Translations under genes and position numbers: made by a program | Notes under the pieces: model-generated | The model's input: the letters and a program-made list of their open reading frames with translations, nothing else | Databases searched by the model: none | Told to the model about the DNA's origin: nothing | Shown here: positions 844-28,478 of the stretch, piece after piece | Layout: each line of letters starts with the position of its first letter | How positions within the stretch are numbered: position 1 is the stretch's first letter | Source of the DNA: a virus | Taxonomy: Duplodnaviria; Caudoviricetes | IMG/VR virus record: IMGVR_UViG_3300024181_000003 | Span: 13,801-77,800 of that record | Strand: one strand, 5' to 3' | Length of the DNA: 64,000 nucleotides

Positions 844-932
844 ATGAGCGGACCAACTCCCTCAGCATCAAACGTATCAAATGTACTCACCGCACAGGCT
901 ATCCTGTTCGACAAGGAACTTATTCCTAACCT
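844..932 (+). CDS. Major capsid protein, exon 1
   Basis: ATG 844 reads MSGPTPSASNVSNVLTAQAILFDKELIPNL and hits TAA unless spliced; joins exon 2 in frame (CT|A AAG GGT = L-K-G). Confidence 0.8.
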
Positions 933-1138
933 AAATTAACTTTGGGTCATCCGCGAGGATGAGAATTTTCTCTAATGGACTTGAACTCTGAGACTGAGAA
1001 CAAGGCGCAAGCGAAAGCAGCGTGAGAGACTAAATGAGAAAACGCCGAAAGGCGATGCGATAGTCCGTTCTGTTGGTAACATGAACCAACAGAGGTTGAC
1101 AGAAATGATCAACCCCTCGAAAGAGGTAACAAATAAAG
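933..1138 (+). ncRNA. Group I self-splicing intron, 206 nt, no internal ORF
   Basis: Exon ends in U932 and intron ends in G1138. P1 ACCU/GGGU with U.G; P10 CUUU(940-943)/AAAG; P2 CAUCC-GCGA-GGAUG; P3 UUUUCUC(966-972)/GAGAAAA(1036-1042); P7 GACUA(1028-1032)/UAGUC(1061-1065); P8 CGCC-GAAA-GGCG; P9 CUGUUGGU/ACCAACAG. Removal restores the frame. Confidence 0.88.
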
Positions 1139-2081
1139 AAAGGGTGAGACGGACGCATTTGTGGCCGTAGCAGAACGCCGTGTGCAGGGATTGCACATGG
1201 GCATCAACCGTCAGTTCTTCCAGTACAACACCCTATCGGGTGACACTGTACAGGCCGCTGACGGCAACGTTGGAGCACCAGAAGTTATCTCCCAGATCAG
1301 CGCCCCGGCGCAGGTCGGCGAGTGGAACAACTACTCCAACTTCTCGGCATTCGCAATCGCTTCGTCGATTGACGAATTGGTCGGGAACTCGGCAGTCGAA
1401 CTCGGCTATCAGGCCGGTCAGTCGATTTCCGAACTGTACAGCGCAGTAGCAGACAGCGCATCTTCTGTGGACGGCAACGTTTCGCAGAACTCGCTTCTGT
1501 CTTCGCCGTACACGCTTGATCTTGCGACCATCCGCGAGATGAAGCAGCAGCTGGTGTCGAACGACGTGCTTCCTTGCAAAAAGGGCATGTTCTACGGCGT
1601 CATCTCGCCGAACGTTCTGGGCGACATCTACAACGCAACGACCGTCAACAACTCGATCGTTGATTTGTTCAAGCGCACAGACGGCGGCATGAAGAAGTTC
1701 GACGAAATCGCTGGCTCTGACCAGACGAAGGAAATCGAACTGCCGGGCACGAACATCATGTTCCGTCAGACCCCGTTTGTCACGAAGACGGCTAACTACC
1801 AGTCCTCGGGCAAGACCGCATACCGCACCTACATCTTCGGCAACTACGCGATGATCGGTGTGTGGCTGCAGGTTCCGGGCGACACGGACCTTGATGAAGG
1901 CGACTGGCGTACGATCGACTGCAAAGTCGTGACCGACGCTCCTCCGTCTTCGTTCGACCCGACGGCAACCATCGGTGGCTGGGCATCTTACCGCTTCCAC
2001 CAGACGGTTACCCTTCCGCCTGCAACGGGTACCAACACCCAGCGCATCCGCTACATCGATAGCGTTCCGGCTATTCAATAG
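1139..2081 (+). CDS. Major capsid protein, exon 2 (spliced product 343 aa; N4-gp56-like HK97 fold suspected)
   Basis: RRVQGLHMGINRQFFQYNTL resembles the N-terminal E-loop region of N4-gp56-like capsids; size and position after the scaffold fit. Confidence 0.75.
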
Positions 2082-2182: not shown

Positions 2183-2764
2183 ATGACGCAATTAAACGAT
2201 TTGACCGCACGCATTTTTGGTCGGCTAACTGTAGAAAAAAGACTCCCTAACCATACCACGTCTGGGGGCAACTCGGTGGTGATGTGGCTCTGCAAATGCA
2301 TGTGTGGTACAGCGATATCCGTTTCGTCCAACTCATTGGTTGAAAATAAAACAAAATCATGTGGTTGTTTACAACGAGAAAGCACTAGAAAGTTGGGGTG
2401 GGCCAACACCAAACATGGCGGATATTCCGCATCTGCTACATACGAAGAGCAAGTTAAACACCAAGCCCTTGTGAACATAAAAGAAAGAGCCAGACGCAGA
2501 GGCTACGATTCCGATTTGACGGTCGAAGACCTTCCAGAGCTAACGGCGTTCTGTCCTGTGTTGGGTATAAAATATAATCGAGGCTCATTGAAAGACAAGA
2601 ACGCATCCCCGTCGATAGACAGAAAAAACACAAATCTTCCCTATCTTAAAAAGCACAGAGATAATCTTGTTTTCATTTCGCATCGAGCCAACAGAATTAA
2701 AACAGACGCTACTGTCGCTGAGATTAGAAAAGTTTTAGAATACGTAGAAGCACAAGGACAATAA
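2183..2764 (+). CDS. Free-standing HNH-like homing endonuclease
   Basis: N-terminal DLT..IFGRLTV...WLCKCMCG...KSCGC; C-terminal CPVLG...PSIDR...SHRANRIK; AT-rich relative to neighbours. Confidence 0.7.
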   Translation: MTQLNDLTARIFGRLTVEKRLPNHTTSGGNSVVMWLCKCMCGTAISVSSNSLVENKTKSCGCLQRESTRKLGWANTKHGGYSASATYEEQVKHQALVNIKERARRRGYDSDLTVEDLPELTAFCPVLGIKYNRGSLKDKNASPSIDRKNTNLPYLKKHRDNLVFISHRANRIKTDATVAEIRKVLEYVEAQGQ

Positions 2765-8387: not shown

Positions 8388-9104
8388 ATGGCACTTGCGC
8401 ACGTTCAAAGCAAAGTTAACAGCAATACAAGCACGACGACGATAGCTGGCGCGTACGCGAGTAACGTCACATCCGGTAACTTATTGGTTGTTCTTTGGGA
8501 AATTCAAGGAACGGCACTGACTCAGCCAACCACTGTGTCTATATCTGACACGATCGGCAATGTGTGGATTCCTGTGTACGGCAGCATTCAAAACGTCACA
8601 GGTGTCACCCCGAAAGTATCCGTCCAAGGTTGGTGTTGTGTGACCAAATCGTCCGGTGCAAACACCGTGACGCTAACGTACAACGCCAGCGGTACTGTCG
8701 GGCTGAGCATGCTATGCACTTCTGAGTTTTCCGGGTGGACCGGCACCACAGCTACGATCGACTCTGGTGTATTCGCAACATCGGCTGGCGGCGCTGCCGG
8801 AACCTATGCGTTCCCGACACTGACGTTCGTAACCAACCACGCTAATGAAGTCATTTTTGCTATTGAAATTGTGAGCGGAACAAACTCAATCACGTCAAGC
8901 ACCTATACAGCGCCATTCACAAAAACGGCAACAGGGACGGCGAACCTTAATTGCGGCTATCATCTGCCGGGTGCAGCAGGCACGTATAATGAAAACGGAA
9001 CTTGGGTTACAGCTGCATCATCCAACGGCATTATCGCTTTTGGAGTTGCGATCGCACAGCCGTCACTGTCAAATGCTTTAATGTTGATGGGTTGCGGGAC
9101 TTAG
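8388..9104 (+). CDS. Putative tail or fibre protein
   Basis: S/T/G-rich; SNVTSGNLLVV...SISDTIGN module is shared with 16301..18043. Confidence 0.55.
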   Translation: MALAHVQSKVNSNTSTTTIAGAYASNVTSGNLLVVLWEIQGTALTQPTTVSISDTIGNVWIPVYGSIQNVTGVTPKVSVQGWCCVTKSSGANTVTLTYNASGTVGLSMLCTSEFSGWTGTTATIDSGVFATSAGGAAGTYAFPTLTFVTNHANEVIFAIEIVSGTNSITSSTYTAPFTKTATGTANLNCGYHLPGAAGTYNENGTWVTAASSNGIIAFGVAIAQPSLSNALMLMGCGT

Positions 9105-25200: not shown

Positions 25201-28200
25201 AAAACGCCCGAGAGAGTCCCGGCACTTATCCGTATGATTATGGGTGGTGTAGCTGCGGACGAGGTGTTTTCTGGTGTAGGCCGCGACGAGCACGGCGTCC
25301 AGCTAGACCCGAGCCGCCCGAGTTCAGACGGCAGTTTAGCTTTGCGTATCATGAAAGAAGCCGGATTCAGCGATGATGTGGCCAAGAAGATGATGAACGA
25401 GGCCATTAACCAAGCAAAAGAACACTTGACAAAGCAGCACGTCTCGGATATAATTAACGAGAATGCCGACGTGCGCGAACCGGGCTTGTCAAAGCAGTAC
25501 CATTTCAGCGGTGAGAGATTAAAGTCGATGGGTGAAGAGGCCCAACGGAGAGCAAATGAAGGAAACAAAACAGAAGCCCCTATCAACAGAGGAGCTGGCG
25601 AAGCAGGCGATCGAGGAAATCAAGAATTCAACGCCAGAGCAGAAGCTGGCAATCCGCCAGCACCTACAGAAACAACTCCTAAAGAAGTAGCACAGGCTGC
25701 CGAGCAGCGTGGTCTGAACCGCCGCTCAGTCGGCAACCCAGAGCACGACCGCATCATCGAAAGCGCTGGTGCTATTCCTGCAGGCGTGGCCTTTCCGGGC
25801 GACCCAGAATCGGAGATCAAACTGTTCCACGACCCAAAGACGGGCTCAACGCTAGGCTTCAAGCCGGGCGAAGAGGTTACCCCGGAAGCGGTTCAGCGGA
25901 AGATGGACGCCAGCCGCAAGCAGTTCGGCGTGGCCGAAACAGTAGCGCCGGAAGAGCACGAACACCTGCTTGACCGTTGGCTGACCGAAAAAAGCGGCTA
26001 CCACCCAGACCTGCAGGCAGTGATCAAGGAAACACGTTCGCTATCCCAGACCCCAGAGGGAATCAAGAACGGCGGCGGATTCATCACACCGGACGGTCAG
26101 TTCTCGATGATGCGGCCCGGCCAGCAGCACCCACAGGTTATCGAAAGAGCCAACGCAGAGCGTCAAGGCGGCCCAGTTGACAACCGTCCCGACTTCCTGA
26201 ACGACACAGGCGCAATTCGTACTCGCTACACAGAAGGTCGTGGCGGTCCTACGCTAGCCGTGTCGATGCCGGAAGATGGTATCACGCCAGCCCAGATCAA
26301 GGCGGTCAGAATGGCCGCTGGTCAGATCGGGAGAAACGCAAACCTGATTTTGGAAACCGCAGGCAAAGAAGGCGTGGCACCCCGCTCAGAGCAGAAAGAA
26401 TTTGCCAAGGTGTCCGACGTTCAGCCGATGCTTGAAAAGCTTGGCATGATCAAGGGCCGGGACTTCGCACAGAAGGCCGTGGATTACGTCAAGGGCGGCG
26501 GATTTACTATCCACCCGAACGGACAAGTTCCGACCGAAGGCCATCAGATCGAAGTGATGCCAGAGCGTCGTAAGATTCTGTCAGGTCCGATCACCGAGGA
26601 CGCAGTCCGTCAGTACCACAACGAAAACAAAGACCTGTTCGATGAGCACCCAGAACTTCACATCGGCGGCTACAATGGCTCGCAGGGTGGTGAACTCAAC
26701 ATCTCCGCACACGGCGACCCAGAGCGTGCTGCGGCTGTTGGCAACAAGCTAGATCAGGAAGCTGCGTGGGACAATGAGAAGAAAGAACTCGTGCCGCTGC
26801 AGGGCAAGAACCAGCAGACTCAGTTCCCGAACTACCCGCTCGAACAGCGTTTGGAAGAACTCAACCCGGGTCGTAATGATTTTAACTTCGGCCACAACGT
26901 TGCTGAACCAGCAGCGCCAACAAATGAGACTCCCGATCAGCAGAAGGGTTTGATCTCTACTGCGCTACCGAAGGGCAAGAAAGCAATCGCAAACCCGCTG
27001 ACATCCGACGTACACATCGGCATCAAATCCGTAACCCCAGAGGCGATGGAGAAGATCGCAGACAAGGTCAAGGAGATGCCCGGCTTCCGTATCGCCAAGA
27101 ATCTCAAGGACCCAGTCAAGGTTGTCAACTCCTACATCCGTCAGTTCGCTGACAACTTGAAAGACGTTTACAACCGTGTTCCAGAGCAGACTCGCCAAGC
27201 CACTGCAAAGTGGTACGAGTCCGCTAACGGAATCGCAGACCGCATGGCCACACAGTTCGGCAAGACCTTGAAGCAAGGTGCTGGCGTACTGGCTGCGCTG
27301 TCTCCGCAAAAGGACTGGGACCAGAACGTGTCGCTTGCAAAGCGTGTCTACGATATCTACCACACCAAGGGCGACATGACAATGACGCCTGAGATGGAGG
27401 CCAAGGTAGGCGACTTGGTCGGTGAAGAGCAGATCGACGAAGAGACCGGCAAAAAGAACCGTAAGAACGACAAACTCGGCAAGCTTGCTGAACAGATCAA
27501 GGGCAAGACCTTCAACGAACTGCAGACTCCGCTTGAGAAGGCGGCGTTCGTACGTTTATACGACGAAGCGCACAACACCGGCGAGGGCCGCAACTTCCGT
27601 TCGATCGACCCGGGCACCGGCGAAGAGGGTGACTTTGTTCGCACAGACAAGGGCAACCCACGCAAGGTCGCTTGGGGCAGCTTGAACGAAATTGCAAAGG
27701 CGGTTTCGATTTTGGACAATGGCAGCCGTGAAAACATCAGCGACAATCTTGGCGAAGCGCACAAGGTCCGCAACTTCTATAACAACATCCTAGACCCGAA
27801 CAATCCGGCTGGACACGTCACCGTTGACACGCACGCCGTGGCTGCGGGACACCAGCGCATGTTGAGCGGAAATAGTCCAGAGGTCGGGGCAAACTTCGGC
27901 CAGTTGAGCGCCGCTGAGACCGGCTTGAAGGGCATGTACGCTGTCAACGCAGAAGCATACCGCCAAGCAGCCAAGGAACTCGGGTTACAGCCTCGACAGC
28001 TACAATCGATCGTTTGGGAAGAAATCCGTAAGCAATTCCCTGACGAGATGAAGCGTGTCGAGAAGCACCAAGACGCAATCAACGACATCTGGCAGTCCTA
28101 CAAGGACGGTAAGATCACTCAGAAAGCTGCACAGGACGCAGTCCGTGATTACGCAACCAAGGCCTACGCAGACATGGTGGCCAACAAGCCTGCGAACAAG

Positions 28201-28281
28201 GGCAAGGAAGAGCCGGGCAAAATTTCGGCGCAGCGTTTCCTATCCCTGATGTCGGGGCTTGACAAATTGGCCGGACAGTGA
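22234..28281 (+). CDS. Giant multi-domain (polyvalent) ejection protein with zincin and HhH-GPD-like domains
   Basis: 2015 aa; LAPPPGFGTPV twice at the N-terminus; HELGH...GGVAADEV near 25057-25270; HKVRNF...VTVDTHA...QLQSIVW near 27760-28030. Confidence 0.65.
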   Translation: MGLNDQLAPPPGFGTPVSIASAPAKSAAAAPAALAPPPGFGTPVDINAQSQDQGQDQQSTDTTYKPFDTENVGSSLGRIVTNNTAEKATYDKVAKEYEGLSDILHGDFHQGMSKIVSGGDEPVTNIGKYIWDAAKKHTVHAVSGELTETAVGAATRTEAMLRGFNDIKEGKYAEGLKEVVSAAASNAGIGKSIVPGSEVEKAFRHYLPNFSGMAMPEEDHTRTSALPTVNISQYIDKNAHPVYKAIAENAEGFSSPENIALMAATDGLGMIASAKQAGMMSRMLSAGWTASAIQGAYQHMGAFKQAWDEGNEPEALYQFTHGVLSGALATRAGQHAGNLSTEPSLLNGKPVFDKIRNVAMEHGILKPNESADAAVQALKPGPKSVDRFKKDWDTAVGDIKAYSDEKGQKISTVGDLHEAVPEMKDAIWTKEVEPATNKHLSEKVDMSPVKTAVLDGITDEVREFEPVETAAAEKFAEKVGKSRTVGDATDLLTYIDAKLNSYFAKNPGARRVDLSTNPETAMWENARRTIRDQLLTHLEDAGEDGIRDARIRYGALSGLEDTITSAAGRLERNPYATASLSHLGVAGLLGSSVGLPLMMAHSLYTGGVAPALAIGAELLRRYNKNPNVLTEHAIKLGEGKEAPTPGAAPAPVNFGPGGPLGADMSPDLHAGLSTYLDKTVGDHTPEELETMFQQKLAANRKGGRVLDKTGSVHNSEELELYKMLNTEKANAAAARQKENQKKLDDAAKEEKKAAAAVEKIGEEGETKAEENVPAAKELVKGAKTPGEKAAADKAAADKAAFDEANEGSNVKTTPESFKKTGEVKTPKGENLKTEEGVEGDNLDEDELQTAQSRTPETQFQQRYNMTVDHADGTRTEEPIDAHSFKQALKLGQKKFPDAKSIELGAADVTQIPRQQGYVVPTGKHLNTPGMTRGMPIEKTMRHELGHYMVGHNEGFEADAIERHTHPDMPKSANAAIQWNLPDTTRNIIHKTPERVPALIRMIMGGVAADEVFSGVGRDEHGVQLDPSRPSSDGSLALRIMKEAGFSDDVAKKMMNEAINQAKEHLTKQHVSDIINENADVREPGLSKQYHFSGERLKSMGEEAQRRANEGNKTEAPINRGAGEAGDRGNQEFNARAEAGNPPAPTETTPKEVAQAAEQRGLNRRSVGNPEHDRIIESAGAIPAGVAFPGDPESEIKLFHDPKTGSTLGFKPGEEVTPEAVQRKMDASRKQFGVAETVAPEEHEHLLDRWLTEKSGYHPDLQAVIKETRSLSQTPEGIKNGGGFITPDGQFSMMRPGQQHPQVIERANAERQGGPVDNRPDFLNDTGAIRTRYTEGRGGPTLAVSMPEDGITPAQIKAVRMAAGQIGRNANLILETAGKEGVAPRSEQKEFAKVSDVQPMLEKLGMIKGRDFAQKAVDYVKGGGFTIHPNGQVPTEGHQIEVMPERRKILSGPITEDAVRQYHNENKDLFDEHPELHIGGYNGSQGGELNISAHGDPERAAAVGNKLDQEAAWDNEKKELVPLQGKNQQTQFPNYPLEQRLEELNPGRNDFNFGHNVAEPAAPTNETPDQQKGLISTALPKGKKAIANPLTSDVHIGIKSVTPEAMEKIADKVKEMPGFRIAKNLKDPVKVVNSYIRQFADNLKDVYNRVPEQTRQATAKWYESANGIADRMATQFGKTLKQGAGVLAALSPQKDWDQNVSLAKRVYDIYHTKGDMTMTPEMEAKVGDLVGEEQIDEETGKKNRKNDKLGKLAEQIKGKTFNELQTPLEKAAFVRLYDEAHNTGEGRNFRSIDPGTGEEGDFVRTDKGNPRKVAWGSLNEIAKAVSILDNGSRENISDNLGEAHKVRNFYNNILDPNNPAGHVTVDTHAVAAGHQRMLSGNSPEVGANFGQLSAAETGLKGMYAVNAEAYRQAAKELGLQPRQLQSIVWEEIRKQFPDEMKRVEKHQDAINDIWQSYKDGKITQKAAQDAVRDYATKAYADMVANKPANKGKEEPGKISAQRFLSLMSGLDKLAGQ

Positions 28282-28287
28282 TATACT
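28259..28287 (+). promoter_or_regulatory. Near-consensus sigma70 promoter overlapping the end of the giant gene
   Basis: TTGACA-N17-TATACT with extended -10 TG. Confidence 0.75.
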
Positions 28288-28304
28288 GGCTCTAAGGTGA
28301 ATTT

Positions 28305-28478
28305 ATGACCGACTACGTACTAGACTACATGAAGAAAAACGACATCCCGGTGACTCGTAAGAACTACATTGAGTTGAACTGGATGGGACAGGCTGACCCA
28401 AATCAGCCGTTGCCTGCGGAACTCGAAGCCGAGATGCCGGAAGAACTGCAACATTCTGATCTCAAATCTGAGAAATAG
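28305..28478 (+). CDS. 57-aa acidic protein absent from the ORF track
   Basis: MTDYVLDYMKKNDIPVTRKNYIELNWMG...AELEAEMPEEL; AAGGTG RBS; directly downstream of the promoter. Confidence 0.65.
   Translation: MTDYVLDYMKKNDIPVTRKNYIELNWMGQADPNQPLPAELEAEMPEELQHSDLKSEK

Follow-up and report, generated by a model that had tools for sequence, protein, structure and literature searches.

Evidence for a compact group I intron without an endonuclease gene in the major head protein gene of an uncultured soil phage

The DNA analysed here (the window, 64,000 nucleotides) lies in a 77.8-kb IMG/VR record of an uncultured soil phage, estimated to be 73% complete. Near its start, on the plus strand, an open reading frame at 844–939 runs for 31 codons and ends at an in-frame TAA (937–939), and the same protein resumes in a long frame at 1161–2081, which is called from GTG 1161. 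Taking out the 206 nt at 933–1138 leaves two exons on the plus strand. Exon 1 (844–932, 89 nt) supplies 29 codons and the first two bases of a leucine codon, ending with U932, while exon 2 (1139–2081, 943 nt including the stop codon at 2079–2081) matches phrog_1357. Joined through the leucine codon CT-A, they encode a product of 343 aa, with a predicted junction of CCUAACCU followed by AAAGGGU in RNA (CCTAACCT followed by AAAGGGT in DNA) and the predicted peptide ELIPNLKGETDAF across it. Upstream of this gene, ORF 2–808 encodes a product with abundant Ala, Pro, Glu and Lys that gives no match in Pfam or PHROG; its location and make-up suggest a scaffolding protein. Downstream lies a free-standing HNH endonuclease gene.

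Homology to annotated head proteins and a position in the head module identify the 343-aa product as the major capsid (head) protein. Twelve of 16 homologues match phrog_1357 (major head protein; best E 4e-7), the window protein's own match being weak. The nearest cultured relative is Tunturi_3, an Acidobacteriota podophage, whose major head protein (343 aa) is 39% identical to the window protein and is encoded downstream of the portal gene; the paper describing the Tunturi phages does not mention introns. Pfam gave no match for the capsid protein, a profile search of PDB sequences returned only spurious kinesin matches, blastn of 700–2200 against GenBank phages found no match, and the AlphaFold model of the capsid protein reached a pLDDT of 32.

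A search of 5.8 billion proteins returned 290 homologues, mostly of 340–345 aa. Intron-less homologues (P0008, P0009, P0017 and others; 340–345 aa) are 76–97% identical to exon 1 and about 75–92% identical to exon 2. Aligned with both pieces of the window gene, they run gapless over the junction, where ...LFDKELIPN-L-KGETDAF... corresponds to exon 1, the leucine of CT-A and exon 2. The intron-less DNA of the related locus L012 reads CCTAACCTAAAGGG at this point, also given as attcctaacctaaagggc. An earlier note on this DNA had held that 933–1138 breaks the capsid frame and had proposed aligning the 343-aa product with intron-less relatives; the stop at 937–939 and the homologues that read through the junction bear it out. 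Two 306-aa database entries (P0003 and P0004) are identical to the window from GTG 1161 onwards, and these are truncated gene calls on intron-bearing contigs, not evidence of a shorter capsid. The sole capsid gene of this phage, like that of many relatives, is mis-called as such a 306-aa protein, just as the note had expected of automatic annotation, and the capsids beginning at GTG 1161 that it had named as the observation to overturn a split gene are no more than these calls.

The 306-aa calls are also what could favour a dead insertion, such as a mobile DNA element or an intron that has decayed, which would have left a capsid pseudogene in a defective phage or a gene restarted at GTG 1161. 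We consider this very improbable. Both exons are intact, exon 1 being 97% identical to the corresponding part of P0017; the N-terminal 37 residues are almost invariant among the capsid homologues; no ribosome-binding site is visible at GTG 1161; the same allele occurs in other metagenomes (loci L015 and L062), with compensatory changes in the intron; and an HMM of the conserved core of the insert found 67 copies in the related capsid loci, all 67 on the sense strand. The bare interruption, taken alone, would likewise fit a group II intron, an intein, or ribosomes bypassing the gap during translation as they do in T4 gene 60. These readings were rejected as improbable in the extreme: the 206 nt are not a multiple of three and carry stop codons in every frame, no group II or other Rfam model matches, and structure and homology are those of a group I intron. 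To our knowledge, 206 nt also far exceeds the known bypass gaps.

An AAA repeat at the insertion point permits four equivalent placements of the insert, and only in the placement at 933–1138 is it preceded by U and terminated by G. The boundaries were therefore set there, in agreement with the reading of the earlier note. The exon bases ACCU (929–932) and the first intron bases AAA (933–935) pair with an internal guide, UUUGGGU (941–947), to form P1 (929–947; 4 + 3 bp), in which U932 and G944 make the U-G wobble that marks the 5' splice site of group I introns. The 5' part of the guide, CUUU (940–943), forms a 4-bp P10 with AAAG (1139–1142) at the start of exon 2; together with the last intron base, G1138, this is the arrangement expected at a group I 3' splice site.

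The remaining structure was read off the window copy and comprises P2, P3, P4, P5, P6/P6a, P7, P8, P9, P9.1 and P9.2, all on the plus strand, so that P4, P5, P6, P9.1 and P9.2 are added to the P1, P2, P3, P7, P8, P9 and P10 noticed earlier, all of which are present. P2 (948–961) is the hairpin CAUCC-GCGA-GGAUG with a GNRA loop, and its counterpart in L015 is CACUC-GUAA-GAGUG. The 5' strand of P3, UUUUCUC (966–972), pairs with GAGAAAA (1036–1042), with compensatory changes at 7 of 7 pairs and 99.4% of the cells in the alignment of relatives paired. P4 (980–983 with 1001–1004) and P5 (986–988 with 996–998) occupy 980–1004 and are separated on both sides by an invariant AA (J4/5 and J5/4); among relatives P4 occurs as CUUG/CAAG, CUCG/CGAG and CUUC/GAAG. 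P6 (1005–1008 with 1020–1023) and P6a, which has a GAAA loop, fill 1005–1023, are 100% paired among relatives and show compensatory changes at four pairs. The 5' strand of P7, G(A)GACU (1026–1031), has A1027 bulged, and G1028-C1065 stands at the position of the guanosine-binding pair. P8 (1043–1054) is the hairpin CGCC-GAAA-GGCG, and 1055–1066 contains J8/7 (AUGCGAU) and the 3' strand of P7 (AGUCC), whereby P7 forms a pseudoknot with P3. P9 (1070–1092) has 7 bp, six of them with compensatory changes. P9.1 (1094–1114) carries the conserved loop CAGAAAUGA, and P9.2 with its tail (1115–1138) consists of CCUC-GAAA-GAGG, a conserved UAACA (1127–1131) and the terminal G1138. The fold z-score of the insert was −5.5.

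Covariation was examined in an alignment (A2) of 25 short inserts of 165–242 nt. In it 91% of the cells are paired, against 35–40% when the partners are slid; double changes occur at 42 of 51 pairs, and none of 500 shuffles reached the observed value. Because the rows of A2 are kin, the shuffle control overstates the significance, which leaves the slide control and the site-specific guides unaffected. Covariation is strong in P3, P4/P5, P6, P8, P9, P9.1 and the P3/P7 pseudoknot of the 25 inserts. P7 is 100% paired, with a closing pair that is A-U in 13 inserts and G-C in 12; the G-C pair beside the bulge and the A-U pair next to it are each kept in 25 of 25, and the base bulged 5' of the G-C pair is A or C. 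We take this G-C pair to be the guanosine-binding site, as in the Tetrahymena ribozyme structures. A competing pairing, AUGGACU (976–982) with AGUCCGU (1062–1068), was rejected, since its 5' partner in relatives is UUGACU with either form of the 3' strand, AGUCC or AGUCU; G(A)GACU or A(C)GACU is preferred as the 5' strand of P7 because it covaries with that strand.

The elements follow the order P3-P4-P5-P6-P7-P3'-P8-P7'-P9, with the P3/P7 pseudoknot, which is the order of the Rfam group I model (RF00028, Intron_gpI), and compensatory changes were found in every core helix. The 5' strand of P7 agrees with AGACUA of the RF00028 consensus; the string AGACUA-AA-P3' and the J8/7-P7' motif GAUAUAGUC both have counterparts in that consensus. 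The guide varies with the insertion site (exon/guide pairs AUCCCU/GGGGAU, ACCU/GGGU, AAGGGU/GCCCUU, GUGGAU/GUCCAC and AAUUCCAU/GUGGAAUU), the U-G wobble being kept throughout, and guides pair on average over 6.0 bp with their cognate exon versus 3.8 bp with non-cognate exons. Against a group I reading we counted an unusually long J3/4 (about 7 nt) and very short P4 and P5.

The covariance search with group I models that the earlier note had called for gave a divided answer. RF00028 found no match in the window or anywhere else in the 77.8-kb record, even with E values up to 10 admitted, and none at its gathering score (50 bits) in 33 related loci; one family member reached only 19.5 bits, and an Rfam re-run on that member returned nothing. 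By this model, then, the window insert is not recognised as a group I intron. The same model was run on known phage introns, where it gave 105 bits for T4 td and 36–40 bits for two more T4 matches, 64–101 bits for three matches in the Twort orf142 region, 43 bits for the Tuc2009 capsid intron, 31 bits for the LittleE capsid intron and 29 bits for the BAKA tail-gene intron. Over the proven phage introns the scores spanned 28–105 bits, and two of the five records passed the cut-off. Since every proven phage intron tried scores with RF00028, its failure here is a real negative for that model.

A covariance model built from the A2 inserts alone (R1) succeeded where RF00028 failed. In the window its only match was 933–1138 (195.7 bits, E 3e-49). 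Run on five complete phage genomes, R1 found the BAKA intron (28204–28451, 70.3 bits, E 1.3e-16; published intron 28186–28450) and the LittleE capsid intron (8860–9095, 48.1 bits, E 7e-11), and gave weak matches that overlap or abut the introns of Twort orf142, T4 td and Tuc2009. BAKA is a Cluster J mycobacteriophage with an ORF-less 265-nt intron in gene 34, a minor tail gene (Pope et al. 2013, PMC3706429), and the LittleE intron, about 820 nt long with an endonuclease gene, lies in gene 13, the major capsid gene (PMC3706429). Splicing of both was proven by RT-PCR, and that of LittleE also by protein sequencing over the junction (PMC3706429). The BAKA intron aligns with the family over its full length, with about 60 invariant columns (alignment A4), and retains the UAACA found in all aligned members; its J8/7-P7' motif is that of the window, and the P9.1 loop is common to the BAKA and LittleE introns. 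Shared with both are P7 AGACU, J8/7-P7' ending in AUAGUC, a P9.1 loop GCAGAAAUGA, the UAACA tail and the U and G boundaries, while BAKA has a P3 of its own (CCUCAC with GUGAGG). The mycobacteriophage introns differ from the window copy in phage group and insertion site; at 206 nt the window copy is the shortest of the three, its P8 being much shorter too, and RF00028 gives about 29–31 bits for them but nothing for the window. The match in sequence and structure is significant and spans the whole intron, and because R1 finds the BAKA and LittleE introns, the window intron joins, as a new member, a family in which splicing has been demonstrated by experiment.

The clean interruption, its boundaries, the covarying structure and the homology to introns spliced in vivo agree with each other, and we place the probability that 933–1138 is a genuine compact group I intron without an endonuclease gene, on the sense strand of the major head gene, at about 0.9. 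The earlier reading of an ORF-less group I intron whose removal is needed to make the capsid protein is thus upheld by the covariation, the junction match and the kinship with BAKA and LittleE. From the structure, splicing of the window copy would probably be autocatalytic. The late capsid transcript would fold through P1–P10 with the P3/P7 pseudoknot, and a free guanosine bound at P7 (G1028-C1065, beside the bulged A1027) would attack after U932, which would be held by its U-G wobble with the guide base G944. The terminal G1138 would next occupy the guanosine site, and exon 2, aligned by P10 (1139–1142 with 940–943), would be joined to exon 1. The spliced message would yield the 343-aa capsid protein and unspliced RNA only a 31-aa peptide, so that production of the most abundant virion protein would hinge on an RNA-catalysed step. 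The idea, also put forward in the earlier note, that splicing serves as a timing switch found no support in the sequence and is speculation.

The reduced architecture leaves room for a variant in which a group I-derived intron no longer splices itself and its removal needs a phage or host protein, or another ribozyme. In favour of this, the P4-P6 domain is strongly cut down, RF00028 fails to recognise the element, and the window intron is the only family copy in the 77.8-kb record, leaving no second copy to help in trans. Against it, the core is intact and conserved throughout, from its helices and the two AA junctions to the P7 bulge and the final G, and BAKA, an intron of similar build, undergoes splicing in vivo. 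We judge a loss of self-splicing unlikely and retain the reading of an intact group I intron.

Among better-known systems, the Lactococcus phage Tuc2009 (orf37/orf38/orf39) offers a parallel in gene organisation: there, too, a group I intron interrupts the major head gene soon after its start, the N-terminal exon having 55 codons versus 30 in the window. In contrast to the window intron, that of Tuc2009 carries a 310-aa ORF; RF00028 gives it 43 bits and R1 only 13.5 bits (E 0.02), which places it in another lineage. With Tuc2009 and LittleE, group I introns in capsid genes are already known, and the window intron is not without precedent. The Staphylococcus phage Twort has three small ORF-less group I introns in orf142, several in one gene as in relatives of the window, but these score 64–101 bits with RF00028 and 17–23 bits with R1, indicating a distant relationship. 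The Azoarcus tRNA-Ile intron (about 205 nt; subgroup IC3, in the anticodon loop) is the textbook minimal group I ribozyme and the commonly cited natural minimum. The window intron resembles it in size and stripped-down build, lacking P5abc and having GNRA loops on short helices; unlike it, the window intron does not reside in a tRNA gene, and its relatives, whose activity is predicted, reach down to 165 nt.

Relatives were gathered with the intron-less homologue P0017, and tblastn of this protein against 69 IMG/VR loci placed inserts after residues 21, 28, 30, 33, 93/94, 119/120, 203, 274 and 276, and further ones after residues 288, 291, 307, 309–312, 315/316 and 338. In this capsid gene the family is present at 15 or more sites. 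One gene can have as many as four inserts, and some relatives have three to four introns in a single capsid gene. The rule of a preceding U and a final G is obeyed by 30 of the 43 distinct placeable inserts, at one of their equivalent placements. Four members measure only 165–173 nt (L022:3090–3254, L054:3090–3261, L052:3085–3256 and L070:3085–3257); they have neither P9.1 nor P9.2, and P2 is missing in three of the four, L054 keeping its P2 hairpin. As these homologous inserts lie at the same or neighbouring sites, the figure of about 205 nt that the earlier note gave as the smallest natural size does not hold.

Some arrangements in the relatives are elaborate. At L026:3823–4660 two tandem introns flank a micro-exon of about 42 nt that encodes PGDTDLDEGDWRTI, and a third intron of the same gene leaves a last exon encoding only PAIQ and the stop codon. 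A different intron of about 630 nt with a LAGLIDADG ORF sits after residue 93/94 at L057:3278–3910 and also in L058, L064 and L065; the L057 copy is not seen by the family HMM and scores 33.4 bits (E 9.5e-5) with RF00028.

The window intron contains no homing endonuclease ORF, its longest open stretch being 60 codons. Introns at the same site in L032 and L046 are 778–839 nt long and carry an HNH ORF of 190–203 aa, and introns at other sites carry HNH or LAGLIDADG ORFs. In the window, a free-standing HNH endonuclease gene (2183–2764, plus strand; phrog_374, 2e-20; no Pfam match) begins 100 nt after the capsid stop codon, with a candidate sigma-70-like promoter at 2095–2123 (TTGACA-17-TAAGAT, TG before the second hexamer). 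The encoded protein shares 56% identity with the ORF carried by the L032 intron at the same site, and 69% with a free-standing homologue that follows the capsid gene in L054 and L055, two loci that likewise have an ORF-less intron at this site. In collaborative homing, an intron is mobilised together with a free-standing endonuclease, as in cyanophage psbA and in DNA polymerase genes of T7-like phages. The window offers a similar picture of an ORF-less intron near a free-standing endonuclease gene that has homologues inside a same-site intron of relatives, and the HNH protein may be a trans-acting mobility partner that aids the spread of the intron. This link is only suggestive, because in L015 and L022 the intron is present but the 1.5–3 kb downstream contain no HNH gene.

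Beyond this capsid family, at least 119 IMG/VR stretches contain the core pattern GACTAA-N18-48-ATGCRATAGTCYG. Among 118 such loci (L071–L188), the HMM matched 113, and only 17 contain this capsid family. Of the adjacent sense-strand ORFs tested, 20 of 30 are major head proteins from at least five PHROG families (phrog_283, 1357, 247/544, 267 and 14242), and the others are a portal protein, a ribonucleotide reductase, GIY-YIG, LAGLIDADG or HNH endonucleases, or have no assigned function. The capsid-gene bias of the family is strong in this sample, although the sample is non-random and a neighbouring ORF need not be the gene that hosts the intron. The bias may reflect conservation of the target sequences, strong transcription late in infection, or transfer between phages that infect the same cell. 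A literature search, with most subscription journals outside its reach, found no paper on the family as a capsid-biased lineage.

More tentatively, and at somewhat less than even odds, the window intron may belong to a very large lineage of 165–245-nt ribozymes, kin to the BAKA and LittleE introns, invisible to Rfam and not yet described as such, with a preference for major capsid genes across many phage groups that are not related to each other. Such a lineage would be retargeted by changes of its guide (at least 15 sites here, up to four copies per gene, with micro-exons of a few codons) and moved by endonucleases that are intron-borne or free-standing, here the HNH gene 100 nt downstream, and would include, at 165 nt, the smallest self-splicing group I introns in nature. 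The wider family offers putative ribozymes that are naturally size-minimised, and a clear case of a single intron lineage that has been redirected to many sites. Rfam-based pipelines will miss this intron; with a family model like R1, many capsid gene calls from soil viromes would be put right.

A comparison of close alleles points to exchange within the family. Exon 1 of the window and of L015 is identical at 89 of 89 positions, and the ends of their introns (933–1138 and L015:1729–1933) are identical as well, while 33 positions differ in the middle of the intron, 20 of them in paired columns. The identical parts comprise P1, P7-P8, P9.1, P9.2 and the 3' tail, and the differing parts P2-P6 and P9, where many of the changes are compensatory. 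This mosaic pattern suggests exchange or recombination between intron copies.
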